Shown: piece by piece, positions 12,305-34,479 of the stretch
How the letters are laid out: each line of letters starts with the position of its first letter
Position numbering within the stretch: position 1 is the stretch's first letter
Assembly: GCF_036370855.1 (NCBI RefSeq)
Contig: NC_088135.1
Coordinates: 62,001 to 126,000, forward strand
Length of the DNA stretch: 64,000 nt
Source: Dromaius novaehollandiae
Lineage: Eukaryota
Direction: 5' to 3'
Translations under genes and position numbers: made by a program
Notes under the pieces: generated by a model
What the model was told of the DNA's origin: nothing
Database searches by the model: none
The model's input: the letters and a program-made list of their open reading frames with translations, nothing else

Positions 12305-13811
12305 GGCTCTGGGGGGGGGGCAGGAGTGAGGGCCCAGGCGTCCGGGAAAGGGCCCAGGCGTCCGAGGGGCCCAGGCGTCCGAGGGGCCCAGGCGTCCGGG
12401 CAGCTCCCGCCAGCTGCTTCCTCCTCGTCCTCAGGCCACGCCCCTGGGCGGGGCCGCTCGCTCCGGGCAACCTCTGCCCGGGAGGGGCCCAGGCGTCCGG
12501 GAGCTCCCATCCCCCGTCCCGAAGGGGCCCAGGCGTCCGGGACACCCCCACAAGGGGCCCAGGCGTCCGGGACTCCCCCCAAAAGGGGCTCAGGCGTCCG
12601 GGCAACCCCCAAGAGGGGCCCAGGCGTCCGGGACTCCCCCAAGAAGGGGCCCAGGCGTCCGGGCACCCCCCTAAAGAGGGGCCCAGGCGTCCGAGACTCC
12701 CCCCAGAAGGGGCCCAGGCGTCTGGGAGAGGGGCCCAGGCGTCCAGGACACCTCAGAAGGGGCCCAGGTGTCCGGGTCTCCCTCCTAAGAAGGGCCCAGG
12801 CGTCCGGGACTCCCCCAAAAAAGGGGCCCAGGCGTCCAGGCAACCCCCAAGAAGGGGCCCAGGCGTCCGGGACTCCCTCCTAAGAAGGGCCCAGGCGTCC
12901 GGGACATCCCCACAAGGGGCCCAGGCGTCCGGGCAACTCCCAAGAGGGGCCCAGGCGTCCGGGTCTCCCTCCTAGGAAGGGCCCAGGCGTCCAGGACACC
13001 CGCAAGAAGGGGCCCAGGCGTCCGGGACTCCCTCCTAGGAAGGGCCCAGGCGTCCGGGACACCCCCAAAAAGGGGCCCAGGCATCCGGGTCTCCCTCCTA
13101 GGAAGGGCCCAGGCGTCCGGGACACCCCCAAAAAGGGGCCCAGGCGTCCGGGCAACCCCCAGAAAGGGCCCAGGCATCCAGGACACCCGCAAGAAGGGGC
13201 CCAGGCGTCCGGGACTCCCCCCAGAAGGGGCCCAGGTGTCCGGGTCTCCCTCCAAAAGGGGCCCAGGCGTCCGGGACTCCCCCAAAAAAGGGGCCCAGGC
13301 GTCCAGGCAACCCCCAAGAAGGGGCCCAGGCGTCCGGGACTCCCTCCTAAGAAGGGCCCAGGCGTCCGGGACATCCCCACAAGGGGCCCAGGCGTCCGGG
13401 CAACTCCCAAGAGGGGCCCAGGCGTCCGGGTCTCCCTCCTAGGAAGGGCCCAGGCGTCCAGGACACCCGCAAGAAGGGGCCCAGGCGTCCGGGACTCCCT
13501 CCTAGGAAGGGCCCAGGCGTCCGGGACACCCCCAAAAAGGGGCCCAGGCATCCGGGTCTCCCTCCTAGGAAGGGCCCAGGCGTCCGGGACACCCCCAAAA
13601 AGGGGCCCAGGCGTCCGGGCAACCCCCAGAAAGGGCCCAGGCATCCAGGACACCCGCAAGAAGGGGCCCAGGCGTCCGGGACTCCCCCCAGAAGGGGCCC
13701 AGGTGTCCGGGTCTCCCTCCAAAAGGGGCCCAGGCGTCCGGACGCCCTTCCCCCCCCCCCGATCCCCCACGTACAAAAGAGGCGGAGCCAAGCGCCACAG
13801 GGGGCGGAGCC

Positions 13812-13924: not shown

Positions 13925-16900
13925 CTGTGGGGAAAGGGGGCGGGGTTAGGGGGCGGGGCTTGCTGGAGCCCCGCCCCCCTCGGCGGGGTAGGGGGCGGGG
14001 CTTGGCGCCCGGACGCCTGGGCCCCTCTCACCGCTGGGTGACGCCGGAGCGGGCGATGTCGGTGACCTGCCCCGAGCGCAGCATCTCCCAGCCGGCCTGA
14101 GCGATCATGGCGCCGTTGTCCACGCAGAACCTGGGGGCGGGGCGGAGCTGGGACGCCTGGGCCCCTCGGCCGGACGCCTGGGCCCTTTCCTGGGACACCT
14201 GGATCCTTTCCCGGACGCCTGGGCCCCTCACTCGGACGCCTGGGCCCTTTCCCGGACGCCTGGGCCCCTCTCCCGGACGCCTGGGCCCTTTCCTGGATCC
14301 CTGTCTCCCTTCCCCGGACGCCTGGGCCCTTTTCCTGGACGCCTGGGCCCCTCCCCGGACGCCTGGGCCCCTCACCGCTCATCAGTGGCGCAGAGCCGGA
14401 TGCCCCGGGCGCTGCACATGGTTCCCAGCATCTCCTGGAGCCGCTCGTTACCTTGGGGGAGGGGGGAGAGAAACGAGGAGGGGTCAGAGGTCGGGCCCGG
14501 ACGCCTGGGCCCCTTTCCCGGACGCCTGGGCCCTTTTCCCGGACGCCTGGGCCCCTTTCCCGGACGCCTGGGCCCTTTTCCCGGACGCCTGGGCCCCTCT
14601 CCCGGACGCCTGGGCCCCTTCCCCGGACGCCTGGGCCCTTTTCCCGGACGCCTGGGCCCCTTTCCCGGACGCCTGGGTCCCTTTCCCGGCCGCCTGGGCC
14701 CCTTTCCCGGACGCCTGGGCCCCTTTCCCGGACGCCTGGGCCCTTTTCCCGGACGCCTGGGCCCCTTTCCCGGACGCCTGGGCCCCTCTCCCGGACGCCT
14801 GGGCCCTTTCCCGGACGCCTGGGCCCCTTTCCCGGACGCCTGGGCCCTTTTCCCGGACGCCTGGGCCCCTTTCCCGGACACCTGGGTCCCTTTCCCGGCC
14901 GCCTGGGCCCCTCATCCCGGACGCCTGGGCCCCTCTCCCGGACGCCTGGGCCCCTCTCCCGGACGCCTGGGCCCTTTTCCCGGACGCCTGGGCCCTTTCC
15001 CGGACGCCTGGGCCCCTTCCCCGGACGCCTGGGCTCCTCTCCCGGACGCCTTGGGCCCTTTCCCGGACGCCTGGGCCCCTTCCCCGGACGCCTGGGCCCC
15101 CTTTCCCGGACGCCTGGGCCCCTTTCCCGGACGCCTGGGCCCCTTCCCGGACGCCTGGGCCCCTCCCGGACGCCTGGGCCCCACGTACAGCCGACGCCGC
15201 CCACCAGCAGCACCTCGGGGCTCCGGCACTGGGCGGCCGCTCGCTCCGTCACCTCCACCAGCATCGCGAAGACCGTCTCCTGCGCCGGGGCCCCAAAATC
15301 CCCTCGATTCACCCCAAAATACCTCCCGGAACCCCCCCCCGACCCCCCCCAACCTTCCCGGAACAAAAACGCCTGAAATCGCCCCAAAAAACCCTCCCTC
15401 GGGGCCTTAAACACCCCCAAATAACCCAAAATACTCCAAAACGGCCCCAAAAATACCCCAGATTGGCCCAAATACCCCCAAATTACCCCCAAATTGCCCC
15501 AAATACCCCAAACTGCCCCAAATACCCCCAAAATGCCCCAAATTTCCCCAAATTACCCCCAAATACCCCCAAACTGCCCCCAAAACCCCTCGATGGCTTG
15601 AAATACCCCCAAATACCCATAAAATGCCCCAAATACACTCCAACTGCCCCAAATACCCCCAAAATTACCCCCAAAACCCTTCGATGGCTTCAAATACCCC
15701 CAAATTCCCCCAAATTCCCCCCAAAACCCTTTGATGGCTTCAAATATCCCCAAATACCCCCAAATTGGCCCAAATACCCCCAAATTACCCCCAAATTCCC
15801 CCAAATTCCCCCCAAAACCCTTTGATGGCTTCAAATATCCCCAAATACCCCCAAAATGCCCCAAATACCCCCAAATTGTCCCAAATACCCCCAAATTACC
15901 CCCCAAACACTTCAATGGCTTCAAATACCCCCAAATACCCCCAAAATGCCCCAAATACCCCCAAATTACCCCCAAATACCCCCAAATTACCCCCAAAACC
16001 CTTTGATAGCTTCAAATATCCCCAAATGCCCCCAAACTGCCCCAAATACCCCCAAATTACCCCCAAAACCCTTTGACGGCTTCAAATACCCCAAAATTCG
16101 CCCAAATTCGCCCAAACTCGCCCAAATTGCCCCCAAATGGCCCCGCCCCCCCCCCGCCCGGACGCCTGGGCCCCGGCGCCGACCTGCAGCGAGAAGCAGA
16201 GATCCTCGACGGTGGCTTCGCCCGAGGCCAGGAGCTGCGGGGCCACTGCCTGCGGGGGGACGCCGGGGCCCTCACCGGACGCCTGGGCCCCTTCCCGGAC
16301 GCCTGGGCCCTTTCCCGGACGCCTGGGTCCCTTTCCCGGATGCCTGGGCCCCTTTCCCGGACGCCTGTGCCCCTTCCCGGACGCCTGGGCCCCTTTCCCG
16401 GACGCCTGGGCCCCTCTCCCGGACGCCTGGGCCCTTTTCCCGGACGCCTGGGCCCTTTCCCGGACGCCTGGGCCCCTTTCCCGGACGCCTGGGCCCCTTC
16501 CCCGGACGCCTGGGCCCCTTTCCCGGACGCCTGGGCCCCTTTCCTGGATTCCTGCCCCCCTCCCCGGACGCCTGGGCCCCATTCCCAGACGCCTGGGCCC
16601 TTTTCCCGGACGCCTGGGCCCCTCCCGGATGCCTGGGCCCCTCTCCCGGACGCCTGGGCCCCTTTCCCGGACGCCTGGGCCCCTCCCCGGACACCTGGGC
16701 CCCTCTCCCGGATGCCTGGGCCCTTTCCCGGATGCCTGGGCCCTTTCCCGGACGCCTGGGCCCCTTTCCCGGACGCCTGGGCCCCTCTCCCGGACGCCGG
16801 GGCCCCTTTCCCGGACGCCTGGGCCCTTTCCCGGACGCCTGGGTCCCTTTCCCGGATGCCTGGGCCCCTTTCCCGGACGCCTGTGCCCCTTCCCGGACGC

Positions 16901-19900
16901 CTGGGCCCCTTTCCCGGACGCCTGGGCCCCTTTTCCCGGACGCCTGGGCCCTTTCCCGGACGCCTGGGCCCCTTTCCCGGACGCCTGGGCCCCTTCCCCG
17001 GACGCCTGGGCCCCTCTCCCGGACGCCTGGGCCCCTTTCCTGGATTCCTGCCCCCCTCCCCGGACGCCTGGGCCCCATTCCCAGACGCCTGGGCCCTTTT
17101 CCCGGACGCCTGGGCCCTTTTCCCCGGACGCTTGGGCCCCTCCCGGATGCCTGGGCCCCTCTCCCGGACGCCTGGGCCCCTTTCCCGGACGCCTGGGCCC
17201 CTCCCCGGACACCTGGGCCCCTCTCCCGGATGCCTGGGCCCTTTCCCGGACGCCTGGGCCCTTTCCCGGACGCCTGGGCCCTTCCCGGACACCTGGGCCC
17301 CTCTCCCAGGACGCCTGGGCCCCTTTTCCCGGACGCCTGGGCCCTTTTCCCGGACACCTGGGCCCCTCTCCGGGACGCCTGGGCCCCTCCCGGACACCTG
17401 GGCCCCTCCCGGACGCTTGGGCCCCTCCCCAGACGCCTGGGCCCCTCCCGGACGCCTGGGCCCCTCCCGGACGCCTGGGCCCCTCACCTCGATGTGCGAC
17501 AGGAGGCCGGAGAAGGAGACGTCGAGGCCCTTCACGACGTACGGCAGCTCCAGCAGCTTCGTCCCCCTGCGGCCGCAGCCCCCCCCGACCCCGTCAGGGG
17601 CCCAGGCGTCCGGGAAAGGGCCCAGGCGTCCGGGAGGGGCCCAGGCGTCCGGGACGCCGCCCTTCCCCCCCCCCCAACACTCACTTTTTAGCCAGTTGCT
17701 CGATGTTGTAGCCGGGACTGGGGTCGTTGGAGATCTGCGGGGGGAGGGCGGGAGTTGGCGGGGGCCCAGGCGTCCGGGAGGGGCCCAGGCGTCCGGGAAA
17801 GGGGCCCAGGCGTCCCAGAGAGGGCCCAGGCGTCCGGGAAAGGGCCCAGGTGTCCGGGGAGGGGCCCAGGCGTCCAGGGAGGGGCCCAGGCGTCTGGGAA
17901 AAGGGGCCCAGGTGTCCGGGAAAGGGGCCCAGGCGTCCGGGAAAGGGGCCCAGGCGTCCAGGGAGGGGCCCAGGCGTCCGGGAAAAGGGGCCCAGGCGTC
18001 CGGGAAGGGGCCCAGGCGTCCGGGAAAGGGGCCCAGGTGTCCGGGAAGGGGCCCAGGCGTCCGGGAAGGGGCCCAGGCGTCCGGGAAAAGGGGCCCAGGT
18101 GTCCAGGAAGGGGCCCAGGCGTCCGGGAGGGGCCCAGGCGTCCGGGAAAGGGGCCCAGGCGTCCGGGAAAGGGGCCCAGGTGTCGGGAAGGGGCCCAGGC
18201 GTCCGGGAAAAGGGGCCCAGGCGTCCGGGAAAAGGGCCCAGGCGTCCGGGAAAGGGGCCCAGGCGTCCGGGAAAAGGGGCCCAGGTGTCCGGGAAAGGGG
18301 CCCAGGCGTCCGGGGAGGGGCCCAGGCGTCCGGGAGGGGCCCAGGCGTCCGGGAAAGGGGCCCAGGCGTCCGGGGAAGGGGACAGGAATCTGGGGAGGGG
18401 CCCAGGCGTCCGGGAAAGGGGCCCAGGCGTCCGGGGAAGGGGACAGGAATCTGGGGAGGGGCCCAGGCGTCCGGGAAAGGGGCCCAGGCGTCCGGCACCT
18501 GCAGCCCCCGGGCGAAGCGATCCAGGCAGTTGCCCACGGCGACGTCCAAGGTTTCGCCCAGGATCCGGTAGCGGCGCCGCGAGAAGGCGATGACCTGGGG
18601 GGGAGAAAAACATGCGTGTCATCGCGTGTCATCGCATGTTATCACGTGTTATCATGTGTTATCGCGTGTTCTCCCACACCGATCCGTGTTATCCCGTGTG
18701 CCGCCCGCTCCCGCCGCCATGGCCGCCGCCACGGGCCTCTGTGTCCCCCCGGGAGCGATACATGTCACAGCGTGTTGTCACGTGTTATCGCGTGTTATCG
18801 CGTGTCGGCCCCCGCGACGCGGAGCGCAGGGTGGCCACGGCCTCCGTGTCGTTACGTGTAACCTCGCGGCCGCCATTTTGGCGTGCGGGGCGTCGCGTGT
18901 CGAGGCGTGTCGAGGCGTGTCGTTGGCGTGTACCTGCGTGTTGCCGCCGCTGACGTAGAGGACCAGGGGGTCGCGGGCGCCGCACACCAGCCGCCCCATC
19001 TCGATGTGCCCCACGCAGTGGTTGACCCCCAGCAGCGGCCGCCCCCACAGCTGCGCCAGCGTCCGGGCCACCGCCGCCACCGTCGCCAGCGGCGCCCCCA
19101 TGCCGGGGCCTGCCGAGCACACGCCAAGCACACGCTAAGGTCACGGGGGCCCCCCGCCACCCCCACACGCCTCCCGTGGGGCTGGGACACCGCTACGACC
19201 CTCCCCAGGGCCCCTGGGACACAAAATGGCTGCACATGTTAAGCACATGCTAAGAACATGCTAAGCACATGTGGCTCATTTGGTGCCCCATGGGCCTCCC
19301 ATACCCCCCACACGCCTCCCGTGGGGCTGGGACACCGCTACGACCCCCCCCAGGGCCCCTAGAATGTAATATGGCTGCACATGCTAAGCACATGCTAAGA
19401 ACATGCTAAGCACATGTGACCCATCTGGTGCCCCATGGGCCTCCCATACCCCCCACATGCCTCCCATGGGGCTGGGACACCGCTACGACCCTCCCCAGGG
19501 CCCCGGGACACAAAATGGCTGCACATGCTAAGCACATGCTAAGAACATGCTAAGCACATGTGACCCATTTGGTGCCCCATGAGCCTCCCATACCCCCCAC
19601 GGGTCTCCCATGGGGCTGGGACACCGCTATGACCCCCCCCAGGGCCCCTGGGACACAAAATGGCTGCACATGCTAAGCACATGCTAAGCACATGCTAAGC
19701 ACATGTGACCCATTTGGTGCCCCATGGGCCTCCCATACCCCCCACGGCTCTCCCATGGGGCTGGGACACTGCTACGACCCTCCCCAGGGCCCCTGGGACA
19801 CAAAATGGCTGCACATGCTAAGCACATGCTAAGCACATGCGACCCATTTAGTGCCCCATGGGCCTCCCATACCCCCCACGGGTCTCCCATGGGGCTGGGA

Positions 19901-21720
19901 CACCGCTATGACCCCCCCTAAGGCCCTTAGGACACAATATGGCTGCACATGCTAAGCACATGCTAAGAACATGCTAAGCACATGTGACCCATTTGGTGCC
20001 CCATGGGCCTCCCATACCCCCCACATGCCTCCCATGGGGCTGGGACACCGCTACGACCCTCCCCAGGGCCCCTGGGACACAAAATGGCTGCACATGCTAA
20101 GCACATGCTAAGCACATGCTAAGAACATGTGACCCATCTGGTGTCCCAGGGCCCCCCTATGACTCCCAGGTGTCTTCTATGGGGCTGGGACACATCTATG
20201 ACCCTCTTCAAGGCACCTAGGACACGATATAACTGCACATGCTAAGCACATGGTAAGCACATGTAAGCCCTACGGCGTCCCTATGGGCCCAAATGGCTCC
20301 CTGGGGCCTCCCAGGTGCTCGGGAGGCATCTGGGAGCCCCCAAAGGCCCCTTGGGCACTGTGGGAGCGCACACGCTAACAACACGCTAAGCATATGCTAA
20401 GCACATGTGAGCCCTACGGCGTCTCTGTGGCCCCAAACGGCTCCCTGGGGCCTCCCAGGTGCTCGGGAGGCATCTGGGAGCCCCGAAAAAGCCTCACGGC
20501 CATGATGCAAGCGCACACGCTAACAACACGCTAAGCACATGCTAAGCACATGTGACCTCTACGGCGCCTCAATGGCCCCAAACGGCTCCCTGGGGCCTCC
20601 CAGGTGCTCGGCAGGCGCCTGGGAGCCCCCGCGGCGGCCGGGGGCGGGGGAAGGGGCCACGCACACGCTAAGCACACGCTAAGCACACGCTAAGCACACG
20701 CCAGGGACACGCCGGGGACACACGCACCGCGGGTGAAAGCGACGGCGTCGACGTGGTGGGGTCGCAGCCCGGCCTCCCGCAGCGCCGCCGCCACCAGCCC
20801 CAGCACCCGGCGCCGGTGGTGCCGCGCCGCCCCGCCCGGGGCGAAGCCTGCCGGGGTCACGGCGGGGTCGCCGTGAGGTCACGGGGTCACGGCGGGGTCA
20901 CGGGGTCACGCGGAGGTCACGCGGGGGTCACGCGGGGTTGTGGCGGGGTCACGGGGGGGTCACGCGGGGTCGTGGCGGGGTCACAGCGGGGTCGTGGCGA
21001 GGTCACGGGGTCACGGTGAGGTGACAGCGGGGTCACGGGGTCATGCAGGGGGTCACATGGGGGTCACACGGGGTGGTGGCAGGGTCGCAGGGTCACAGTG
21101 GGGTCACACGGGTCACGGGGGGTCACGGTGGGGTCACAGGGGGCCGATGACGTCACGGGGGGTTGCCGTGGGGTCACATGGGGTCGTGGCGGGGTCCTGG
21201 TGGGGTCACGGGGGGGTCACGGGGGCGCGATGGGGTCACGCCAGGGTCGGGGAGGGTCACGGTGGGTCAAGGGGGCGCGGTAGGGTCACATGGAGGTCAC
21301 ATGGGGGTCACGTGGGGGTCATGGGGGTCACGGCAGGGTCACGGGGTCAGGGCGGGGACTCGGGGTGTCCCCGGGGTCATGGGGTCGCGGGGGGGGGTCA
21401 CACGGGGGTCAGGGGTCACGCGCGGGGGGTGGAGCCCCAGGGCCACGTGGCGCCGGGGGGGGCGGGGCCAGCGGTCACGTGGGCGGCCGGCGGGGGGAGC
21501 GCCAAGGGGTCCCGCGCGCGGGGGGGAGGGGGGGAGCCCGCGGAGGAGGGGGGCGCGGTGACGTCACGGGGGCGCGGTGACGTCACGGGGGGGCGGGGCG
21601 CTCACCCTGGCCGGGCGCCGTGACGTAGGTGGCGCGCGGGTTGCTCAGCACCTGCCCGTCGCGCACCAGCCCCGCCCCCACCTTGTTGGCCGAGCCCTCC
21701 AGCCCCAGCACCACCGGCAT
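13885..21720 (-). CDS. OSGEP: OSGEP (Kae1, the tRNA t6A N6-threonylcarbamoyltransferase catalytic subunit), complete 11-exon CDS of 335 codons
   Basis: The eleven exons sum to 1008 nt including the TGA, which equals the 335 aa of human OSGEP. All junctions are GT/AG with consistent phases. The translation is [49 protein letters not shown]...[41 protein letters not shown]...[12 protein letters not shown], collinear with human OSGEP. Confidence 0.9.
14032..14130 (-). CDS. OSGEP: OSGEP exon 10: (R)[32 protein letters not shown](R)
   Basis: Acceptor cccccag|G TTC, donor CAG CG|gtgagag, 99 nt. Confidence 0.85.
14376..14451 (-). CDS. OSGEP: OSGEP exon 9: (C)[24 protein letters not shown](R)
   Basis: Acceptor ccccaag|GT, donor GAG CG|gtgagg, 76 nt. 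Confidence 0.85.
15189..15279 (-). CDS. OSGEP: OSGEP exon 8: [30 protein letters not shown](C)
   Basis: Acceptor ggcgcag|GAG, donor GGC T|gtacgt, 91 nt. Confidence 0.85.
16184..16249 (-). CDS. OSGEP: OSGEP exon 7: [22 protein letters not shown]
   Basis: Acceptor cccgcag|GCA, donor CAG|gtcggc, 66 nt. Confidence 0.85.
17488..17566 (-). CDS. OSGEP: OSGEP exon 6: (K)[26 protein letters not shown]
   Basis: Acceptor ccgcag|G GGG, donor GAG|gtgagg, 79 nt. Confidence 0.85.
17685..17734 (-). CDS. OSGEP: OSGEP exon 5: [16 protein letters not shown](K)
   Basis: Acceptor ccgcag|ATC, donor AAA AA|gtgagtg, 50 nt. Confidence 0.85.
18499..18594 (-). CDS. OSGEP: OSGEP exon 4: [32 protein letters not shown]
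   Basis: Acceptor ccccag|GTC, donor CAG|gtgccg, 96 nt. Confidence 0.85.
18934..19109 (-). CDS. OSGEP: OSGEP exon 3: (G)[58 protein letters not shown]
   Basis: Acceptor ctcggcag|GC, donor CAG|gtacac, 176 nt. Contains the Kae1 metal-binding motif HxxGH. Confidence 0.85.
19130..20720. repeat. Approximately 120 bp tandem repeat carrying GCTTAGCATGTGC / GCTTAGCGTGTGC motifs, about 12 copies, in OSGEP intron 2
   Basis: The unit ...atggctgcacatgctaagcacatgctaagaacatgctaagcacatgtgacccatttggtgccccatgggcctcccatacccccca... repeats with a period of about 120. The same GCTTAGCGTGTGC motif reappears at 51990-52340 and 57560-57600. Confidence 0.85.
20728..20847 (-). CDS. OSGEP: OSGEP exon 2: (G)[39 protein letters not shown](G)
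   Basis: Acceptor ccggcag|GC, donor CGC G|gtgcgt, 120 nt. The 5' boundary could lie up to about 20 nt further upstream within a GTGACCCCG repeat. Confidence 0.75.
21606..21720 (-). CDS. OSGEP: OSGEP exon 1: [38 protein letters not shown](G)
   Basis: The ATG is the reverse complement of cat at 21718-21720. Donor CAG G|gtgagcg, 115 nt. Confidence 0.85.
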
Positions 21721-22797
21721 GACGTCAGCGCCTGCGTCACCACCCGCCCCCCCGGTCACCGCCGCTCCCGCTGCTCCCGCCGCGCCGCTCCGAACTCTCC
21801 GCTTCCGGCCGCGCGCTGCGCCCCCACTTCCGCTTCCGGCAGCGCGCCGCCCACTTCCGCCCGCACTGCCGCCCTACTTCCGCCCGCGCTGCGCTGCCTC
21901 ACTACTTCCGGTCGTGCCACCGCCCTACTTCCGCCCTCACCGCCTCCCTACTTTCGCCCACACTGCGCTGCCTCACTACTTCCGGTCGTGACACTGCCCT
22001 ACTTCCGCCCTCACCGCCTCCCTACTTCCGCCCGCACTGCGCGGCTTCGCTACTTCCGCCCGCGCCGCCTCCCTACTTCCGCCCGCGCCGCGCCGCCTCC
22101 CTACATCCGCCCGCCCGGCGCTCCTCCTCCTTCCGCTTCCGGCCCCGCCCCTTCCGCCCGCGTGCGTCCAGCGGCGGCGGCAGCAGCGGAGCTTCTCCCC
22201 GCTCCTCCCCCCCCCACCGCCGCTCCCGCGGGCGCTGATTGGCTGCGAGGGGCCCCCCCCGTGCCCCGCCCCCACCGGAGCGGCGCGGCGGGCGCTGATT
22301 GGCTGCGAGGGGCTTTTCGCCCCCCCCCCACCGTGCCCCGCCCCCACCGGAGCGGCGCGGCGAGGCGAACCGGGCGGCGCTGATTGGTTCGGAGCGGCGC
22401 GGCGGGCGCTGATTGGCTGCGGCGGGGTGGTGGCCGGGGGGGGGGGAGGGGGGGGCGGAGGCGCGGGGGGGGGGGGGGGCGAGCTACGGCGCGCGCTGAT
22501 TGGCCGCGCCGCGCGTGGGGGGGGGGGCGGGCTTTGCCTTCACGGGCGCTCCTGATTGGCCGGGCCCGCGCGGCGCGCGCTGATTGGCCGAGGCGCGCGG
22601 AAGGGGCGGGGCTTCGCGCCTCCCCTCTTCCCCCCCCCCCCCCCCCCCCCCCACAACGGCCGGTTCCTCTCCAGGGAGGCGGCGCCGAGCGAGGGGGCGT
22701 GGCCTGCCGCCGAGGGGGCGTGGCCTGCCGCCGAGGGGTGTGATCTGCCGCCGAGGGGGCGTGGTCTGCCGCCGAGGGGGCGTGGCCTGCAGCCGCC
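21721..22797. promoter_or_regulatory. Bidirectional CpG-island promoter shared by OSGEP(-) and APEX1(+), which are head to head about 1.08 kb apart
   Basis: There are at least 12 tandem ETS/GABP-type motifs (plus-strand ACTTCCG(C/G), reading CGGAAGT on the other strand) between 21780 and 22140. Seven CCAAT boxes of the form GCGCTGATTGGC(C/T) lie between 22230 and 22590. A CRE palindrome TGACGTCA at 21721-21728 abuts the OSGEP ATG. Confidence 0.6.
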
Positions 22798-22864
22798 ATG
22801 CCGAAGCGGAGCAAGAAGGAGGCGGCGGAGGGAGACGCTGGGAAGGAAGCGGCCGCTGAGACCG
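22798..22864 (+). CDS. APEX1: APEX1 coding exon 1: [22 protein letters not shown](G)
   Basis: ATG at 22798, donor ACC G|gtacgg. Confidence 0.8.
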
Positions 22865-25800
22865 GTACGGACCAGTTTGGACCAGTATAAACCAGTATGG
22901 ACCAGTATAAACCAGTATAGACCAGTATAGAGCAGTTTAGACCAGTATAGACCAGTATAGACCAGTATAAACCAGTATAGACCAGTATAGACCAATATGG
23001 GTTGGGGCTCCCTCCCACTGTCCTCCCCAGGCCCCCCAGTGCCCTCCCAGTGCCTCCCAGTATGTCCCAGTGGCTCCCAGTAGCCCCCCCAATATGTCCC
23101 AGTGGGCCTCCAGTGCCGTCCCAGTATGTCCCAGTGTTGTCCAGTACTTCCCAGTATCTCCCAAGGCCGTCCCAGCATCACCCAGTGCCTCCCAGTATCT
23201 CCCAGTCCCCTCCCAGTAGCCCCTAGTGCCCTCCCAGTTCACCCAGTCCCCTCCCAGTGCCTCCCAGGGCCCCCCCAGCTCCCCCCTAGACCCTCCCCAG
23301 TGCCCCCCAGTGCCCCCCAAACCCCCCCCAGTGCCTCCCGGTCCCTTCCCAGTGCCCCCCAGTGCTTCGCAGTGCCTCCCAGTGCCCCCCAGTGCCCCCC
23401 AGACTCTCTCCAGTGCCCCCCAAACCCTCTCCAGTACCTCCCAGTGCCCCCCAGTGCCTCCCAGTGCCCCCCAAGTCCTCTCTAGACCCTCCCCAGTGCC
23501 CTCCCAGTGCCTCCCAGTGCCCCCCAAATCCCCTCTAGACCCTCCCCAGTGCCTCCCAGTGCCCTGCAAGCCCCCCTAGACCCTCCCCAGTGCCTCCCAG
23601 TGCCCTGCAACCCCCCCTAGACCCTCCCCAGTCCCTCCCAGTGCCCCCCAGTGCCTCCCAGTCCCCCCCCAGTGCCTCCCAGTGCCTCCCAGTGTCTCCC
23701 CAGTGCCTCCCAGTGCCTCCCAGTGCCTCCCAGTGCCCCCCAAATCCCCTCTAGACCCTCCCCAGTGCCTCCCAGTGCCCTGCAAGCCCCCCTAGACCCT
23801 CCCCAGTGCCTCCCAGTGCCCCCCAGTGCCTCCCAGTCCTCCCCCAGTGCCTCCCAGTGCCTCCCAGTGTCTCCCCAGTGCCTCCCAGTGCCCCCCAGTG
23901 CCTCCCAGTGCCCCCCAAGTCCTCTCTGGACCCTCCCCAGTGCCTCCCAGTGCCTCCCAGCACCCCCAAGTCCCCTCTAGACCCTCCCCAGTGCCTCCCA
24001 GTGCCCCCCAGTGCCTCCCAGTGCCCCCCATATCCCCTCTAGACCCTCCCCAGTGCCCACCTAGTCCCCCCCAGACCCTCCCCTGTCCCCCCCAGACCCT
24101 CCCCAGTGCCTCCCAGTGCCCCCCAGTGCCTCCCAGTGCCCCCCAAATCCCCTCTAGACCCTTCCAAGTGCCCCCCAGTGCCTCCCAGTGCCCCCCAGTG
24201 CCTCCCAGTGCCCCCCAAGTCCCCTCTAGACCCTCCCCAGTGCCTCCCAGTCCCCCACAGTGCCTCCCAGTGCCTCCCAGTGCCCCCCAGTGACGCCGGC
24301 TCCCCCCCCCACGCAGGAGGGCGCCCCCCGAAGGCCCCGCGGGGCGACGGGGGGGAGGCGGCGCCCTACGAGGACCCCCCCGACCGGCTGACGTCACCGG
24401 GGGGGCAGCGCTTCACCCTCAAGGTGACGTCGTGGAACGTCGACGGCCTCCGCGCCTGGGTGCGCAAGCAGGGCCTGCAGGTGAGCAGGGGCCCAGGCGT
24501 CCGGGAGAGGGGCCCAGGCGTCCGGGAGAGGGGCCCAGGCGTCCGGGAGGGGCCCAGGTGTCCAGGAGAGGGGCTCAGGTGGGCAGGGAGGGGCCCAGGC
24601 GTCCGGGAAAAGGGCCCAGGCGTCCGGGGAGGGCCCAGGCGTCCGGGAGGGGCCCAGGAGTCCGGGGAGGGGCCCAGGCGTCCGGGGAGGGGCCCAGGTG
24701 TCCAGGAAGGGGCCCAGGTGGGCAGGGAGGGGCCCAGGCGTCTGAGTAAAGGGCCCAGGCGTCCGGGTGAGGGTCCAGGCGTCAGGGAAAAGGGCCCAGG
24801 CGTCCAGGAAGGGCCCAGGAGTCTGGGAAAAGGGCCCAGGCATCCGGGAAGGGGCCCAGGCGTCCGGGAGAGGGGCCCAGGCGTCCGGGTGAGGGCCCAG
24901 GCGTCCGGGGAGGGGCCCAGGCATCCAGGAGGGGCCCAGGCGTCCGGGAAAGGGGCCCAGGCGTCCGGGAGAGGGGCCCAGGCGTCCAGGTGAGGGGCCC
25001 AGGTGTCCGGGAGGGGCCCAGGCGTCCAGGAAAGGGCCCAGGCATCCGGGAAAGGGGCCCGGGTGTCCGGGGACGGGCCCAGGCGTCCGGGAGAGGAGCC
25101 CAGGTGTCCGGGGAAGGGCCCAGGCGTCCGGGAGAGGGGCCCAGGCGTCCGGGGAGGGGCCCAGGCGTCCTGGAAGGGTCCCAGGCGTCCTGCCACCCCC
25201 CCCCCGTGTCCCCCCCCCGGCAGTGGGTGCAGGAGGAGGCCCCGGACGTGCTGTGCCTGCAGGAGACCAAGTGCGCGGGGGGGGCGGTGCCCCCGGAGGT
25301 GCGGGCCCTGCCCGGCCTCCCCCACCAGTTCTGGGCCAGCGCCGAGGGCAAGGCCGGCTACAGCGGCGTGGGGCTGCTGGCCCGCCACGAGCCCCTCAGC
25401 GTCACCTACGGCATCGGTGAGTCCCCCCCCGGCCCCCAAAATGCTCCTTTCTGCCCCAAACCGGCGTCGTGCTGCCCCAAAATACTCTTTTGTTACTCCA
25501 AAATACTCTTTTTCTGCTCAAAAACGCTCTTTTCTATCCCAAAATGGCATCGTTGTACCCCAAAACACTCTTTTGTTACTCCAAAATACTCATTTTCTAC
25601 TCAAAAAGGCTTTTTTCTACCCCAAAATGGTGTCGTCGTACCCCAAAATACTCTTTTGTTACTCCAAAATGCTCGTTTCCTGCTCGAAAACGTTCTTTTC
25701 TGTCCCAAAATGGCGGCATCATACCCCAAAAACTCTTTTTTGTTACTCCAAAATACTCTTTTGTTACTCCAAAATACTCTTATCCCGCTCGAAAACGCTC

Positions 25801-28800
25801 TTTTCTGTTCTAAAATGGCGTCGCTGTACCCCAAAATACTCTTGTTACTCCAAAATACTCATTTGTTGCTCCAAAATACTCTTTCCCCGTTCGAAAACGT
25901 TCTTTTCTGTCCCAAAATGGCGTCGTAGTACCCCGAAACTCTCATTTGTTACTCCAAAATACTCATTTTCTACCCAAAAAGGCTCTTTTGTACCCTAAAC
26001 TGGGCTTGTGCTACCCCAAAATGCTCATTTGTTACTCTAAAATACTCTTCCTACTCAAAAACGCTCTTTTCTATCCCAAAATGGTGTCGTACTACCCCAA
26101 AATACTCATTTGTTGCTGCAAAATACTCTTCCCACTTGAAAATGCTCTTTTCTGTCCCAAAATGGCATGGGGCTGCTGGCCCGCCACGAGCCCCTCAGCG
26201 TCACCTACGGCATCGGTGAGTCCCCCCCCGGCCCCCAAAGTGCTCCTTTCTGCCCCAAACCGGCGTCGTGCTGCCCCAAAATACTCCTTTGTTACTCCAA
26301 AATACTCTTTTCCCGCTCGAAAACGCTCTTTTCTATCCCAAAATGGCATCGTTGTACCCCAAAACACTCTTTTGTTACTCCAAAATACTCTTTTCCCGCT
26401 CGAAAATGATCATTTCTATCCCAAAATGGTGGCATCGTACCCCAAAATACTCTTTTGTTACTCCAGAATACTTTTTTCCCGCTCGAAAACGCTCTTTTCT
26501 ATCCCAAAATGGCGTCGTTGTACCCTAAAATACTTTTGTTACTCCAAAATACTCATTTCCTACTCAAAAAGGCTGTTTTCTACCCCAAAATGGTGTCGTC
26601 GTACCCCAAAATACTCTTTTGTTACTCCAAAATACTCTTTTCCCGCTCGAAAAAGTTTTTTTCTGTCCCAAAATGGCGCCATCATACCCCAAAAACTCTT
26701 TTTTCTTACTCCAAAATACTCGTTTGTTACTCCAAAATACTCTTATCCCGCTCGAAAACACTCTTTTCTGTCCTAAAATGGCGTCGCTGTACCCCAAAAT
26801 ACTCTTGTTACTCCAAAATACTCATTTGTTGCTCCAAAATACTGTTTTCCCGCTCGAAAACGCTCTTTTCTATCGCAAAATGGTGTCATCGTACCCCAAA
26901 ATACTCTTTTGTTACTCCAAAATACTTTTTCCCGCTCGAAAACGCTCTTTTCTATCCCAAAATGGCGTCGTTGTACCCCGAAACTCTCATTTGTTACTCC
27001 AAAATACTCATTTTCTACCCAAAAAGGCTCTTTTCTACCCTAAACTGGGCTTGTGCTACCCCAAAATGCTCATTTGTTACTCTAAAATACTCTTCCTACT
27101 CAAAAACGCTCTTTTCTATCCCAAAATGGTGTCGTACTACCCCAAAATACTCATTTGTTGCTGCAAAATACTCTTCCCACTTGAAAATGCTCTTTTCTGT
27201 CCCAAAATGGCATGGGGCTGCTGGCCCGCCACGAGCCCCTCAGCGTCACCTACGGCATCGGTGAGTCCCCCCCCGGCCCCCAAAGTGCTCCTTTCTGCCC
27301 CAAACCGGCGTCGTGCTGCCCCAAAATACTCTTTTCCCGCTCGAAAATGCTCTTTTCTATTCTAAAATGGCGTTGTTGCACCCTAAAATACTGTTGTTAC
27401 TCCAAAATACTCTATTGTTGCTCCAAAATATTCTTTTCCCACTGAAAAATGCTCTTTTCTATCCCAAAATGGTGTCGTCCTACCCTAAAATACTCTTTTG
27501 TTACTGCAAAATTCTTATTTCCTACTCCAAAAGACTCTTTTCTACCCCAAAATGGTGTCATCGTACCCCAAAATACTCCTTTGTTACTCCAAAATATTCT
27601 TTTCCTGGTCGAAAATGCTCTTTTTTGTCCCAAAATGGCATCGTCGTACCCCAAAAACCTCTTTTGTTACTCTGAAATACTCATTTGTTACTACAAAATA
27701 CTCTTTCCCGCTCAAAAATGCTCTTTTCTATCCCAAAATGGCATCGTCATACCACAAAACTCTCATTTGTTACTCCGGAATACTCATTTGTTACTCCAAA
27801 ATACTCTTTCCCACTTGAAAATGCTCTTTTCTATCCCAAAATGGCATCATAGTACCCCAAAATATTTGCTACTCCAAAATACTCATTTGTTACTCCAAAA
27901 TACTCTCTTCCCGCTCGAAAATGCTCTTTTCTATCCCAAAATGGCGTTGTTGTACCACAAAACTCTCATTTGTTACTCCAAAATACTCATTTGTTACTCC
28001 AAAATACTCTTTTCCCGCTTGAAAATGCTCTATTTTATTCCCAAATGGTGTCATAGTACCCCAAAATACGCATTTGTTATCCCAAAATACGCATTTGTTA
28101 CTCAAAAATGCTCTTTTTTACCCCAGACTGGGCTCCTGCTACCCCAAAGTACTCTTTTGTTACTCCAAAATACTCTTTTCTCGCTCGAAAACGCTCTTTT
28201 CTATCCCAAAACGGCGTTGTGGTACCCCAAAATACTCATTTGTTACTCCAAAGTACTCATTTGTTACCCCAAAGTACTCTTTTGTTACTCCAAAATACTC
28301 TTCCCACTCGAAAACGCTCTTTTCTATCCCAAAATAGCATTGTGGTACCCCAAAATACTTATTTGTTACTCCAAAATACTCATTTGTTACTCCAAAGTAC
28401 TCTTTTCCCGCTCAAAAATGCTCTTTTCTGTCCCAAAATGGCGTGATAGTACCCCAAAATACTCGTTTGTTACTCCAAAATATTAATATTCTACTCTAAA
28501 ATGCTCTTTTCTACCCCAAGCTGGCCTCTTGCTGCCCCAAAACACTCCCTTGTTGCCCCAAAATACCCATTTGCCACCCTGAAATACTCTTTTTTGCCCC
28601 AAACTGGCCTCGTAGTACCCTGAAGAACTCATTTGTTACTCAAAAATACTCATTTCCTACCCTAAAATGCTCTTTTCTGTCCCAAACTGGGCTCGTGCTG
28701 CCCTGAAATACTCATTTTGTCCCTCTTCTGCCCCCGTTCCGTCCATCTGCTCCTCTTTCATCCATCTCCTGTTCCATCCATCTCCTGTTCCATCCATCTT

Positions 28801-30264
28801 GTCTTATTCCATCTATTTTTTGCTCCCATTTGCTCCATCTTTCTCCATTCCATCCATCTTCTTCTGTTCCATCTTCTCCTCCTGCTCCATCCATCTCCTC
28901 CCGCTCCATCCATCTCCTCCTCCTGGTTCCCTCCATCTTCTCCTGCTCCATCCATCCATCTTCTCCTGTTTCGTCCATCTTTTCCTGTTTCGTCCATCTT
29001 CTCCCATTTCATCCATCTTCTGTTTTTCTATCCATCTTCTCCCGTTTCATCCATCTCCTCCTGTTCCATCCATTTTGTCCTGCTCCATCCATCCATCTTG
29101 TCCTGCTGCATCCATCCATCTTGTCCCACTCCATCCATCTTGTTCTGCTCCATCCATCCATCTCCTCCTCCATCCATCCATCCATCTCCTCCTCCATCCA
29201 TCCATCTCCTGCTCCATCCATCCATCTCCTCCTCCATCCATCCATCTCCTGCTCCATCTATCCATCTTGTCCTCCTCCATCCATCCATCTTCTGCTGCTC
29301 CATCCATCCATCTCCTGCTCCATCCGTCCATCTCCTCCTGCTCCATCCATCCATCTCCTCCTCCATCCATCCATCTTGTTCTCCTCCATCCATCCATCTT
29401 CTGCTGCTCCATCCATCCATCTCCTCCCGTTCCATCTTCTCCTCCATCTCCTGCTCCATCCATCCATCTCCTTCTCCATCCATCCATCTTGTTCTCCTCC
29501 ATCCATCCATGTCCTTCTCCATCCATCCATCTTGTCCTCTTCCATCCATCCATCTCCTCCTGTTCCATCCGTCTTCTCCCGTTCCATCCATCTTCTCCCG
29601 TTCCATCCATCTCCTCCTCCATCTCCTGCTCCATCCATCCATCTCCTCCTCCATCCACCCCTCCCTTCCCGTCCCCCCCATCACCATTTCCCCCCGTTTC
29701 CCCCCCGTTTTTCACCGTTTCCCCCCCGTTTCCCCCCACAAAACCGCAGGCGACGAGGAGCACGACCGCGAGGGCCGCGTCCTCACCGCCGAGTTCCCCG
29801 CCCTCTTCGTGGTGGCCGCCTACGTCCCCAACGCCGGCCGCGGCTTGGCCCGCCTGGGCCGCCGTACCCGCTGGGACGCCGCCTTCCGCGCCTTCCTCGC
29901 CCGCCTCGACGCCCGCAAGCCCGTGGCCCTCGCCGGCGACCTCAACGTGGCCCACGGCCCCCTCGACCTCCGCCACCCCCGCGCCAACCGCCGGGCGCCC
30001 GGCTTCACCGACGAGGAGCGCGGGGCCTTCACCGCCCTCCTGGACGCCGGCTTCATCGACTCCTTCCGCCACCTTTACCCCGCCGTGCCCCACGCCTACA
30101 CCTTCTGGACCTACTTGGGGGGCGCCCGGGCCCGCAACGTGGGCTGGCGCCTCGACTACTTCGTCCTCTCCCGGCGGCTCCAAGGGGCCCTTTGCGACAG
30201 CAAGATCCGCTCCAAGGTCATGGGCAGCGACCACTGCCCCATCACGCTCTACCTGGCCCTATAG
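22798..30264 (+). CDS. APEX1: APEX1 (APE1/Ref-1, AP endonuclease 1), complete CDS in 4 coding exons, 312 aa
   Basis: Exon lengths 67+164+193+515 = 939 nt, in frame. The translation is collinear with human APEX1: ...[38 protein letters not shown]|[17 protein letters not shown]...[20 protein letters not shown]|[15 protein letters not shown]...[12 protein letters not shown]...[12 protein letters not shown]. Confidence 0.9.
24317..24480 (+). CDS. APEX1: APEX1 coding exon 2: (G)[54 protein letters not shown]
   Basis: Acceptor cccacgcag|GA, donor CAG|gtgagc, 164 nt. Confidence 0.85.
25224..25416 (+). CDS. APEX1: APEX1 coding exon 3: [64 protein letters not shown](G)
   Basis: Acceptor ccccccccggcag|TGG, donor ATC G|gtgagt, 193 nt. 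Confidence 0.85.
25420..28700. repeat. AT-richer 30-40 bp satellite (CCAAAATACTCTTTTGTTACTCCAAAATACTC...) in APEX1 intron 3, containing two extra copies of the exon-3 3' end plus donor
   Basis: The fragments tggggctgctggcccgccacgagcccctcagcgtcacctacggcatcggtgagtcccccccc at about 26166-26222 and 27213-27270 duplicate 25367-25423. Confidence 0.9.
28700..29700. repeat. CCATCCATCT(CCTC) satellite in APEX1 intron 3
   Basis: ccatccatctcctcctgctccatccatccatct... Confidence 0.85.
29750..30264 (+). CDS. APEX1: APEX1 coding exon 4 (terminal): (G)[32 protein letters not shown]...[12 protein letters not shown]
   Basis: Acceptor aaaaccgcag|GC, TAG at 30262-30264, 515 nt. Confidence 0.9.
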
Positions 30265-31700
30265 CTGCCCTATAGCCCTCTAAGCCTGGTTTATATGGGG
30301 CTGGGGTCTTCCATGTTGGGTTGTGATGGTCCCATCACACTCTACCTGGCCCTATAGCTGCCCTATAGCCCCCTAAGCCTGGTCTGTATGGGGCTGGGGT
30401 CTTCTCCGTTGGGTCATGATGGTCCCATCAAGCTCTGCTTGGCCCTATAGCTGCCCTATAGCCCTCTAAGCGTGGTCTGTATGGGGCCATCGTGGTCCTT
30501 CTGGGGTCGTGATGGTCCTATCATGCTCTACCTGGCCCTATAGCTGCCCTATAGCCCCCTAAACCTGGTCTATATGGGGCTGGGGTCTTCTCCGTTGGGT
30601 TGTGATGGTCCCATCACGCTCTACCTGGCCCTATAGCTGCCCTATAGCCCCCTAAACCTGGTCTATATGGGGCTGAGGTCTTCCATGTTGGGTTGTGATG
30701 GTCCCATCACGCTCTACCTGGCCCTATAGCTGCCCTATAGCCCCCTAAGCTTGGTCTATATGGGGCTGAGGTCTTCTCCGTTGGGTTGTGATGGTCCCAT
30801 CATGCTCTACCTGGCCCTGTAGCTGCCCTATAGCCCCCTAAGCTTGGTCTATATGGGGCTGAGGTCTTCCATGTTGGGTTGTGATGGTCCCATCACGCTC
30901 TACCTGGCCCTATAGCTGCCCTATAGCCCCCTAAGCGTGGTCTGTATGGGGCCATCGTGGTCCTTCTGGGGTCGTGATGGTCCTATCATGCTCTGCTTGG
31001 CCCTATAGCTGCCCTATAGCCCCCTAAACCTGGTCTATATGGGGCTGGGGTCTTCTCCGTTGGGTCATGATGGTCCCATCACGCTCTGCTTGGCCCTATA
31101 GCTGCCCTATAGCCCCCTAAACCTGGTCTATATGGGGCTGAGGTCTTCTCCGTTGGGTTGTGATGGTCCCATCACGCTCTACCTGGCCCTATAGCTGCCC
31201 TATAGCCCCCTAAACCTGGTCTATATGGGGCTGGGGTCTTCTCCGTTGGGTCGTGATGGTCTCATCAAGTTCTGCTTGGTCTTATAGCTGCCCTATAGCC
31301 CTCTAAGCTTGGTCTATATGGGGTTGAGGTCTTCTATGTTGGGTTGTGATGGTCCCATCATGCTCTACCTGGCCCTATAGCTGCCCTATAGTCCCCTAAA
31401 CCTGGTCTATATGGGGCTGGGGTCTTCTCCGTTGGGTCATGATGGTCCCATCAAGCTCTGCTTGGCCCTATAGCTGCCCTATAGCCCTCTAAGCGTGGTC
31501 TGTATGGGGCTGAGGTCTTCTCCGTTGGGTTGTGGTGGTCCCATCATGCCCTACTTGGCCCTATAGCTGCCCTATAGCCCCCTAAACCTGGTCTATATGG
31601 GGCTGAGGTCTTCTCCGTTGGGTTGTGATGGTCCCATCACGCTCTACCTGGCCCTATAGCTGCCCTATAGCCCCCTAAATCTGGTCTGTACGGGGCCATC
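30265..31700. repeat. Approximately 93-105 bp tandem repeat of about 16 copies, each retaining the last 8 codons plus stop of APEX1 (CCCATCACGCTCTACCTGGCCCTATAG)
   Basis: The first copy is the genuine APEX1 3' end at 30238-30264. ...gtgatggtcccatcacgctctacctggccctatagctgccctatagcc... then recurs at about 30334, 30424, 30527 and so on up to about 31650. Confidence 0.9.
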
Positions 31701-33657: not shown

Positions 33658-34479
33658 AGGTGGCGGAAAAAAAAAATGGTGGTGTGGTTGCGCAGGGGCC
33701 CAGGCGTCCGGGGAGGGGCCCAGGCGTCCGGGAGGGGCCCAGGCGTCCGGGGAAGGGGCCCAGGCGTCCGGGGAGGGGCCCAGGCATCCGGGAAGGGGCC
33801 CAGGCGTCCGGGAAAGGGCCCAGGCGTCCGGGAAAGGGGCCCAGGCGTCCGGGGAGGGGCCCAGGCGTCCGGGAAAGGGGCCCAGGCGTCCGGGAACGGG
33901 GCCCAGGCGTCCAGGAAAGGGCCCAGGTGTCCGGGAAAGGGGCCCAGGCGTCCGGGGAGGGGCCCAGGCGTCCGGGAAAAGGGGCCCAGGCGTCCGGAAA
34001 AGGGGCCCAGGCGTCCGGGAAAAGGGGCCCAGGTGTCCCCAGAGGGGCCCAGGCGTCCGGGGAGGGGCCCAGGTATCCGGGAAAGGGGCCCAGGCGTCCG
34101 GGAGAGGGGCCCAGGCGTCTGGGGAGGGGCCCAGGCGTCCGGGAAAGGGCCCAGGCGTCCGGGAGAGGGGCTGGATACGAACAAAAGGGGCCCAGGCGTC
34201 CGGGAGGCCGAGGGGCCCAGGCGTCCGGGCCTTTATTTACAGTCTCTGCCCTGCCCCCGCCGGAGGGGGAGGAGCCATTAAATATATGTACACGCGGGGG
34301 GCGGGGCTTATGTACAGCAGGAGGGGCGGGGCCTCGCGGAGGGGGCGGGGCTAGCGGGCCCCAGGGCATTGTGGGATTGGAAGGGGGGGGCCACGCGCTC
34401 CTCCCCGTCGCCAAGTGCATGCTGGGAAGGGGGAGGGCGGAAGCGGGTCCCGGGCGCCGTACCGGGGGGGGGGGGTTGG

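Follow-up and report, generated by a model that had tools for sequence, protein, structure and literature searches.

The 1,077 bp that separate the divergent genes OSGEP and APEX1 in a 64-kb stretch of Dromaius novaehollandiae DNA (NC_088135.1, positions 62,001 to 126,000; hereafter the window, whose copy numbers are those of one haplotype of one species) carry three tandem arrays side by side, composed of ETS, CCAAT and GC/GT-box units, together with a cyclic AMP response element (CRE) at the OSGEP start codon. We consider it probable that this interval is a conserved bidirectional CpG-island promoter whose elements were multiplied by local tandem duplication of the type found on avian dot chromosomes, and whose multiplied sites probably still function. 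The term promoter is used here on the strength of sequence, CpG content and synteny.

The interval, 21721-22797, is bounded exactly by the start codons of OSGEP (minus strand, 21720-21718) and APEX1 (plus strand, 22798). A preliminary description of this DNA, made from its letters alone, had named the two genes as a head-to-head pair, and exon translations and database matches bear out both identities. The first coding exon of OSGEP is 77-87% identical to that of duck, king vulture, a tyrant flycatcher (Myiozetetes), flamingo and king cobra. Splicing of 22798-22864, 24317-24480, 25224-25416 and 29750-30264 yielded a 312-amino acid APEX1, and the last of these exons matched avian APEX1 at 78-84% identity (E=1e-105 to 1e-84). 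From ATG to ATG the G+C content is 79% and the ratio of observed to expected CpG (CpG o/e) is 0.96, compared with 1.37 in the ETS array and 0.52 in the whole window. No TATA-like sequence was found in the 1,077 bp, in which the longest A/T run is 4. The interval is in these respects a TATA-less CpG island, as expected of bidirectional promoters. That class is defined by facing 5' ends with start sites less than 1 kb apart; here the start sites of both genes would have to lie between the divergent ATGs if no upstream non-coding exon exists.

All ACTTCCG sequences of the 64-kb window, 10 exact copies at 21826-22075, fall in the interval, whereas shuffling the 1,077 bp 2000 times with dinucleotides preserved gave ACTTCCG/CGGAAGT a mean of 0.09 and a maximum of 2. 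The interval contains 15 CTTCCG ETS cores on a single strand, 13 matches to [AG]CTTCCG[CG] (the reverse complement of SCGGAAGY) and 8 copies of the strict pattern CTACTTCCG[CG]. The 13 matches are all on the plus strand, so CGGAAGT reads toward OSGEP. The main ETS array is a 74-bp higher-order repeat (23+23+28 bp) that Tandem Repeats Finder (TRF) reported in 4.3 copies with 80% matches, and copies of a double-ETS element lie on both of its sides (Table 1). The 'ACTAC' of the ETS units suggested a ZNF143-type site, but this reading was dropped upon inspection of the sequence, as the remainder of that consensus is missing.

The CCAAT zone holds seven copies of CTGATTGG, at 22235, 22295, 22380, 22409, 22496, 22552 and 22580, against a mean of 0.01 and a maximum of 1 for CTGATTGG/CCAATCAG in the shuffles. 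On the OSGEP-sense strand all seven boxes read RRCCAATCAG, the optimal, textbook NF-Y site. The longer GCGCTGATTGG occurs six times and the full 13-mer GCGCTGATTGGC[CT] five times in the interval, and six of the seven boxes have up to 46 nt of context in common. The boxes are spaced by 60, 85, 29, 87, 56 and 28 bp, with G-runs between them (22436-22479). A 23-nt inverted repeat with 96% complementarity (GCTCCCGCCGCGCCGCTCCGAAC / GTTCGGAGCGGCGCGGCGGGCGC; 21773-21795 and 22387-22409, 591 nt apart) was also observed; it joins the OSGEP-proximal end of the interval to the spacer of a CCAAT unit and is, by a rough estimate, marginally beyond chance for this composition.

The third array consists of five copies of CGAGGGGGCGTGGCCTGCCGC that span 22690-22795 and end 2 bp before the APEX1 ATG. 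All four plus-strand copies of GGGGCGTGG in the window are inside the interval (4 of 11 when both strands are counted), and the mean in the shuffles was 0.11. On the opposite strand the core of the 21-bp unit reads GGCCACGCCCC, which we take to be an Sp/KLF-type box. GABP/ETS, NF-Y and Sp1 motifs are therefore all enriched, with 13 SCGGAAGY, 7 RRCCAATCAG and 4 GGGGCGTGG compared to 0.01-1.2 expected. The ETS, CCAAT and GT-box sites are tandem or segmental copies of each other and not independent motif hits.

At the opposite end of the interval, the CRE that overlaps the OSGEP start codon must be located within the 5' untranslated region (UTR) or at its end, and a CRE half-site, CGTCA, is present at 21735. 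Two additional full CREs are found in OSGEP intron 1, at 21559 and 21578. This intron is filled by 10-11-bp GGGGTCACGG-type repeats (20852-21596) that grade into full CREs (GGTGACGTCAC) near exon 1, and the same gradation was seen in duck (locus L001, 7000-7560) and vulture (locus L002, 6200-6550). Because the gradation is common to the window, duck and vulture, the intron 1 minisatellite may derive from a CRE-containing promoter-proximal unit.

The preliminary description had proposed that ETS and CCAAT elements are present as tandem repeats and that the OSGEP ATG is embedded in a CRE. The first proposal is confirmed by the counts against shuffles, by TRF and by the repeat finder, with the numbers of exact ACTTCCG and CTGATTGG given above, and the second by TGACGTCA at the start codon. 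Its numbers hold in part. The ETS arrays are real, but its figure of at least 12 consecutive units is reached only when two CACTTCCG units are included along with two degenerate ones, ACTTTCG at 21950 and ACATCCG at 22103; similarly, its seven near-identical CCAAT boxes are seven with respect to CTGATTGG but five with respect to the full 13-mer. The motif classes that it named were right, but it overlooked the Sp/KLF-type GT/GC-box array.

Table 1. Features in and around the OSGEP/APEX1 interval, in window coordinates.
Feature	Position	Strand	Support or detail
21-bp GGGGCCCAGGCGTCCGGGA family	3719-4597, 6499-7146, 7277-13741, 14151-15182, 16275-18495, 24487-25190, 33694-34229, 36240-38184, 41035-41402		
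19-bp unit GGGGGCGCGGTGACGTCAC, 2.5 copies, OSGEP intron 1	21549..21596	.	TRF, 96% matches
OSGEP exon 1, coding part	21604..21720	-	tblastn and translation, 39 aa
CRE palindrome TGACGTCA, overlaps the OSGEP start codon	21720..21727	.	CAT at 21718-20; minus strand reads TGACGTCATG
Two copies of the double-ETS element (C)TTCCGCTTCCGG	21796..21848	-	repeat-finder family D7
Main ETS array, 11 contiguous 23- or 28-bp units (ACTTCCGCCC...; OSGEP-sense GGGCGGAAGT)	21850..22129	-	TRF, families D1 and D4
Third double-ETS copy and one further CTTCCGCCC; end of the ETS zone	22130..22165	-	
CCAAT zone, 7 boxes (CTGATTGG on +, RRCCAATCAG on -)	22216..22606	-	repeat-finder family D2
C23 homopolymer between the CCAAT zone and the GT-box array	22630..22652	.	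TRF, sequence
21-bp array, CGAGGGGGCGTGGCCTGCCGC x5 (4 with intact GGGGCGTGG)	22669..22795	+	TRF, 5.1 copies, 89% matches; family D3
APEX1 exon 1, coding part	22798..22864	+	22 aa, then GT donor

Orthologous loci were compared in five birds, namely duck, king vulture, Myiozetetes, flamingo and yellow-rumped tinkerbird (Table 2). The intergenic region is complete in the first four. In the tinkerbird (Pogoniulus pusillus, GCA_015220805.1, JADCQK010000134.1; locus L004, 1-4064) just the CCAAT and GC-box end is visible, the contig stopping beyond it. For the flamingo, locus L009 was used, as L005 has no recognisable promoter. Two other candidates were rejected: a Sigmodon APEX1 match is an intronless retrocopy with no OSGEP nearby, and a king-quail match lies at a contig end without a promoter.

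Table 2. Element counts between the OSGEP and APEX1 start codons in the window and in five other birds.
Species	Interval	CRE	ETS cores	ATTGG	GC/GT box
Window	1,077 bp	1	16	7	6
Duck	327 bp	3	7	3	1
King vulture	973 bp	1	3	12	6
Myiozetetes	946 bp	4	2	17	2
Flamingo	980 bp	1	1	12	7
Yellow-rumped tinkerbird	>4 kb, incomplete			at least 130	1

In the window and in all four birds with a complete interval, the order from OSGEP to APEX1 is CRE, ETS, CCAAT and GC/GT box. Orientation is equally regular, with every ATTGG on the APEX1-sense strand (51 of 51, plus 130 of 130 in the tinkerbird) and 27 of the 29 ETS cores on one strand. These four birds also have a CRE at the OSGEP ATG or no more than about 10 bp from it: king vulture and Myiozetetes share the CATGACGTCA of the window, whereas duck and flamingo have a full CRE 3-10 bp away.

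The units that were multiplied are not the same from bird to bird. The ACTTCCGCCC ETS unit is expanded 11-fold in the window alone, whereas the double-ETS element TTCCGCTTCCGG is found in all four complete birds, in three copies in duck and singly in vulture, Myiozetetes and flamingo (the flamingo copy being TTCTGCTTCCGG). The CCAAT unit mainly multiplied in the window is of a GCGCTGATTGGCTGCG type that is single-copy in the other birds; the multiplied unit of vulture, Myiozetetes, flamingo and tinkerbird, all members of the Neoaves, is of a 31-bp GCGCTGATTGGCTCCGGTT(T/C)GG type. CCAAT spacing is mostly 31-32 bp in flamingo, Myiozetetes and vulture, and 33 and 31 bp in duck. In the tinkerbird, the 4 kb upstream of the APEX1 ATG are filled with 31-bp units in register (CCCTGATTGGCTCCGGTTTGG...), of which there are at least 130 up to the end of the contig; this copy number is a lower bound because the contig ends inside the array. 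These units comprise 33 distinct variants, each unit has an intact CCAAT box, and the spacing is 31 bp in 129 of 129 cases. Homologous 21-bp GGGGCGG(A/G)GCC units are present in vulture and flamingo, with two in Myiozetetes and one each in duck and tinkerbird. As an outgroup, a king cobra draft has one ETS site, one GGTGACGTCACC and two CACGTG, its ETS and CRE sites being single, and no array. From these comparisons the element set and its order appear to predate the arrays. Several Neoaves have the CCAAT and GC-box arrays in common, and these are the only arrays that are widely shared; the large ETS array is peculiar to the window species. Copy numbers are lineage-specific, and different units were amplified in different lineages.

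Two side observations concern APEX1 in these loci. The public Myiozetetes APEX1 model begins in intron-1 GACCAGTATGG repeats (product MDQYGPVRASMGQYGPV..., annotated start 6001), a misannotation caused by the repeats; the true first exon is MPKRGKKEEAAKDGEG at 5499 (locus L003, 5499-5548). APEX1 intron 1 starts with a 10-bp GACCAGTATA repeat in the window (22859-24292), duck (L001, 8040-9000), vulture (L002, 7700-8600) and flycatcher (L003, 5550-5600), and CCTCCCAGTG-type repeats come after it in the window and vulture. This repeat family is thus kept at this position in distant birds although such arrays are thought to turn over quickly.

Comparison of the units within the arrays provided information regarding the motif cores. 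In the 11 contiguous ETS units of the window, the 7-bp core has 2/77 mismatches and the spacer 35/199 (Fisher p=6e-4, which like the p-values below is indicative only). TGATTGG is intact in 130 of 130 tinkerbird units, and none of the 26 rare variant types touches it, all of them affecting the other 24 positions (p=0.0013; p=0.010 when only the a-priori pentamer is used). Among 17 one-mismatch variants of CTGATTGGC in five birds, two are inside ATTGG (p=2e-4). Motif cores are thus far better conserved than spacers, which suggests that the sites probably remain functional; the pattern would agree either with ongoing selection on the binding cores or with arrays that are young and homogenised. 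We also considered whether amplification compensates for GC-biased erosion of AT-containing cores, and this idea was unsupported, with two eroded ATTGG copies in five birds.

The surroundings of the interval are saturated with repeats. TRF classified 85.5% of the 64 kb as tandem repeat, and 95-98% of the APEX1 introns, with dominant periods of 21, 62, 31, 10, 41 and 83 bp. The PIP4P1/TMEM55B ATG is at 42779 (minus strand) and a PNP exon at 55777-56070 (plus strand), and the duck and vulture loci have the same neighbours; by this synteny (APEX1, OSGEP, PIP4P1, PNP) and by its repeat load the window looks like avian dot-chromosome sequence. The amplification reported earlier for OSGEP/APEX1 is real, but it is not special to that locus, since in this repeat-dense window two other promoter-like regions are multiplied as well. 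An Rfam search of the window for RNA families returned none.

The amplified units of the window are 21 bp (GT box) and 74 bp (ETS, higher-order repeat) long, and four other birds have a 31-bp unit; multiples of 10-11 bp are matched less well by the 23/28-bp ETS sub-units. Three promoter-like regions, this interval and the two described below, make up 3.9% of the window and contain 18 of its 19 SCGGAAGY and 13 of its 14 CTGATTGG matches. Because the matches are confined in this way, the arrays come from local promoter sequence and not from dispersed intron minisatellites. Local origin and unit lengths near 10-11-bp multiples are features of 'sequence stuttering', a local expansion described for introns, with exon-derived copies and strong polymorphism among chickens (PMC12954441). 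Stuttering as first described is confined to introns, whereas the present arrays lie between two start codons; they extend the description and are not a textbook member of the class.

The explanation that we favour starts from an ancestral ordered set, with a CRE at the OSGEP start, then ETS and CCAAT elements and, at the APEX1 start, Sp/KLF GC/GT boxes. Local tandem duplication, by the same minisatellite-generating instability that also fills dot-chromosome introns, would have multiplied each element along with 15-25 bp of its flank. In the window species the ETS unit would have expanded the most (11 units and 3 double sites), along with the type-A CCAAT unit (7) and the 21-bp GT-box unit (5). 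The sites would be ordinary binding sites for GABP/ETS, NF-Y, Sp/KLF and CREB/ATF that jointly hold the island open and drive the two genes. The motif cores would be under selection, with copy number and spacers largely free to drift. Given the repeat-saturated setting and the third array, local duplication is the simplest origin for the amplification.

Several points weigh against this explanation. Both the promoter role and the binding of factors are inferred from sequence. The array copies are non-independent, owing to shared higher-order repeats and ancestry, and the ETS units were cut at the motif, which limits the p-values as noted above. The CCAAT spacings of the window (28, 29, 56, 60, 85 and 87 bp) miss the 31-bp optimum of NF-Y dimers, and the swing from 3 to at least 130 CCAAT boxes argues that copy number is not tightly selected. 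A scan for 5'-UTR introns detected donor-like GTACGG/GTGAGT sites in vulture, flamingo and Myiozetetes and an acceptor-like site in vulture, a similar flamingo site being below the scan cut-off; no donor above threshold was found in the window or duck interval. Part of the CCAAT array of vulture, flamingo and Myiozetetes could thus lie in a 5'-UTR intron, and the GC-box array in the 5' UTR. A specific selective design is further opposed by the 21- and 31-bp periods, which are the generic periods of the surrounding minisatellites, and by the duck, which manages with a 327-bp interval and three CCAAT boxes.

The alternative that survives best, purely neutral stuttering, we regard as possible though unlikely. 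The arrays would then be inert by-products seeded in promoter sequence, with one or a few ancestral copies doing the work and the remainder unbound passengers of drifting number. This fits a window that is mostly tandem repeat, the 21-bp (window) and 31-bp (other birds) units as generic dot-chromosome periods, and a copy number that ranges from 3 to at least 130 with no obvious pattern. The same process has produced APEX1 exon 3 fragments in intron 3 and multiplied the coding end x15.7 downstream, and intergenic sequence has already been remarked as affected (PMC12954441). However, cores were significantly less variable than spacers in three comparisons, eroded cores do not accumulate (five birds together have 51 intact ATTGG and 2 eroded ones), the CCAAT and GC-box arrays occupy the same position across Neoaves, and CpG o/e is about 1 across the arrays. 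These observations are not decisive, as the arrays may be young and homogenised.

We advance only tentatively, and with considerable doubt, the idea that factor-bound promoter elements are preferential seeds of helical-phase (21/31-bp) amplification on dot chromosomes and that core selection keeps the resulting arrays functional. Adaptive amplification is improbable in our judgment. By that account selection favoured additional ETS, NF-Y and Sp sites for raising or buffering the expression of two essential genes in unstable, repeat-dense, G-quadruplex-prone chromatin, or factor-bound DNA was the preferred seed. Different CCAAT-containing units did expand in different lineages, all three promoter-like regions of the window have amplified motif modules, the CCAAT core is invariant in the tinkerbird, and four birds space their boxes by 31-32 bp, the distance that NF-Y dimers prefer in human promoters (PMC4982600). 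The same 31- and 21-bp periods are nevertheless just as typical of non-promoter minisatellites, the duck has a short interval with three CCAAT boxes, and the test for GC-biased erosion gave just two eroded copies. Finally, mis-assembled or over-expanded arrays are very improbable: the euchromatin of dot chromosomes is difficult to sequence, HiFi coverage dropping out over minisatellites, and the tinkerbird contig does end inside its array, but the units of the window are diverged and arranged in an ordered higher-order structure rather than identical, the same architecture is found in five independently assembled species, and the flanking exons are intact.

The two other promoter-like regions differ in their CpG content. 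The head-to-head interval between PIP4P1 (TMEM55B) and PNP, 42780-43736, has a CpG o/e of 1.07 and five modules of about 100 bp; the PNP start is a probable one. The modules carry CTGATTGG (CCAAT), CCACGTGG and the RFX-like GTTGCTAGGTGAC. Each has, besides CTGATTGG, an E-box CCACGTGGGG and an RFX-like GCGTTGCTAGG(T/A/C)GAC, and single CCAAT and CRE sites are located beyond them. This interval appears to be a second bidirectional promoter with amplified modules. The region 880-1350 contains five modules of about 70-118 bp with a composite ETS/CRE GGGGCGGAAGTGACGTCA, flanked by CCCCGCCCC, and CCAATCAG at 900. They lie immediately upstream of an ATG on the minus strand, at about 862, that opens a short G+C-rich open reading frame followed by a GT donor-like site. 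Its status as a promoter is uncertain because the CpG o/e is only 0.56.

Repeats elsewhere in the window were recorded as well. A 93-bp unit (x15.7, 88% matches, 30238-31696) starts inside the APEX1 coding sequence and runs into the 3' flank, each unit opening with the last 27 coding bases CCCATCACGCTCTACCTGGCCCTATAG (PITLYLAL*) followed by 66 bp of flank. This expansion of a terminal exon into the 3' flank exceeds the intron-confined picture of PMC12954441. The 3' end of APEX1 exon 3, donor included, has two extra copies in intron 3 (26161-26223 and 27206-27268), an 'exon stuttering' as in chicken. One 21-bp minisatellite family (GGGGCCCAGGCGTCCGGGA and its reverse complement) occurs in both orientations in many introns and intergenic stretches of different genes (Table 1), a spread that is hard to square with stuttered repeats being strictly local in origin. 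In the PIP4P1 gene region, a 33-bp unit CCAAGATGGCCGCCCCCATGGGAGGCCGCCATT (x5.4, 91% matches, 34549-34726) has two inverted YY1-like cores (AAGATGGCC / GGCCGCCATT) and may be a further motif-bearing array or an internal promoter.

The published accounts of dot-chromosome instability that were searched treat it as intronic and do not mention regulatory sequence, and the OSGEP/APEX1 case adds promoter elements to them. In the comparisons, what seems to be the same process has affected the core elements of a bidirectional promoter that is essential, recurs at neighbouring promoters and extends to six or more lineages of birds. Should the sites be bound, birds would provide a ready-made series of promoters whose main difference is how many identical NF-Y, ETS or Sp sites they have, and the influence of the number and spacing of such sites on the output and directionality of a promoter could be tested in it. 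If promoter elements do act as seeds and selection does maintain the cores, NF-Y/ETS/Sp copy number would be a fast-evolving regulator or buffer of housekeeping-gene output, and the interval a natural allelic series with 3 to at least 130 CCAAT boxes and 1 to 16 ETS cores across birds. If the arrays are inert, they would be a clear example of neutral repeat expansion that remodels a promoter without destroying it. In either case, such arrays break assemblies, as in the tinkerbird contig, and mislead annotation, as for Myiozetetes APEX1.

The combination of GABP and NF-Y sites, which the preliminary description had called the signature of bidirectional promoters, agrees in general with human data, where the GABPA motif is enriched 7.1-fold and NF-Y 5.3-fold in this promoter class (PMC3121118, PMC3418287). 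Experiments on the mammalian OSGEP/APEX promoter named a CCAAT box and Sp1 as the elements on which its function depends (Seki et al. 2002 Gene 285:101; Ikeda et al. 2002 BBRC 296:785), to the extent that PMC3121118 and PMC3418287 cite this work. The likeness to the window then lies in the same head-to-head genes, a TATA-less CpG island, and CCAAT and Sp1 elements. In contrast to the single sites and short interval that this cited literature gives for mammals, the window has 7 CCAAT boxes, at least 15 ETS cores and 5 GT-box units over 1,077 bp. Direct CCAAT repeats in human promoters prefer a spacing of 31 bp, with lesser peaks at 41, 52 and 63 bp (PMC4982600). The OSGEP/APEX1 interval resembles this NF-Y direct-repeat class, and homotypic clusters, in having several CCAAT boxes of the same orientation in a housekeeping promoter. 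The 31-bp spacing is matched in the other birds but not in the window (28-29 bp and multiples), and whereas the human promoters mostly have two boxes, the interval of the window, vulture, Myiozetetes, flamingo and tinkerbird has 7 to at least 130, by tandem duplication.

The TYMS 28-bp and ALOX5 GGGCGG repeats are promoter variable-number tandem repeats (VNTRs). Promoter VNTRs that modify expression are also known in other organisms (PMC4857002, PMC4725990; reviewed in PMC3899988). As in the present interval, their tandem units each contain a factor-binding motif and their copy number is evolutionarily labile. They usually consist of one array of one motif, with polymorphism within a species and a measured effect on expression, whereas three different arrays lie side by side in the window.

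A further close system is the stuttering of avian dot chromosomes. Their minisatellites make up more than 70% of introns, with units in 10-11-bp multiples, and direct repeats are also over-represented in promoters and 5' UTRs (bioRxiv 10.1101/2025.10.17.683159). PMC12954441 adds, as a remark only, that intergenic sequence is affected; the words promoter, transcription factor and binding site are absent from it. Promoter motif arrays are likewise undiscussed in the complete chicken genome paper, which uses promoter only for a T7 primer, and in the zebra finch genome paper, where the word is absent. The OSGEP/APEX1 interval shares with avian stuttering (PMC12954441; bioRxiv 10.1101/2025.10.17.683159; 10.1101/2025.10.14.682431) a GC-rich, repeat-saturated setting and units of local origin. 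Lengths near 10-11-bp multiples, exon-derived copies and strong differences in length between species (327-1,077 bp, and >4 kb in the tinkerbird) are further common features. Stuttering is known mainly for introns, whereas the units amplified here are promoter elements with conserved motif cores.

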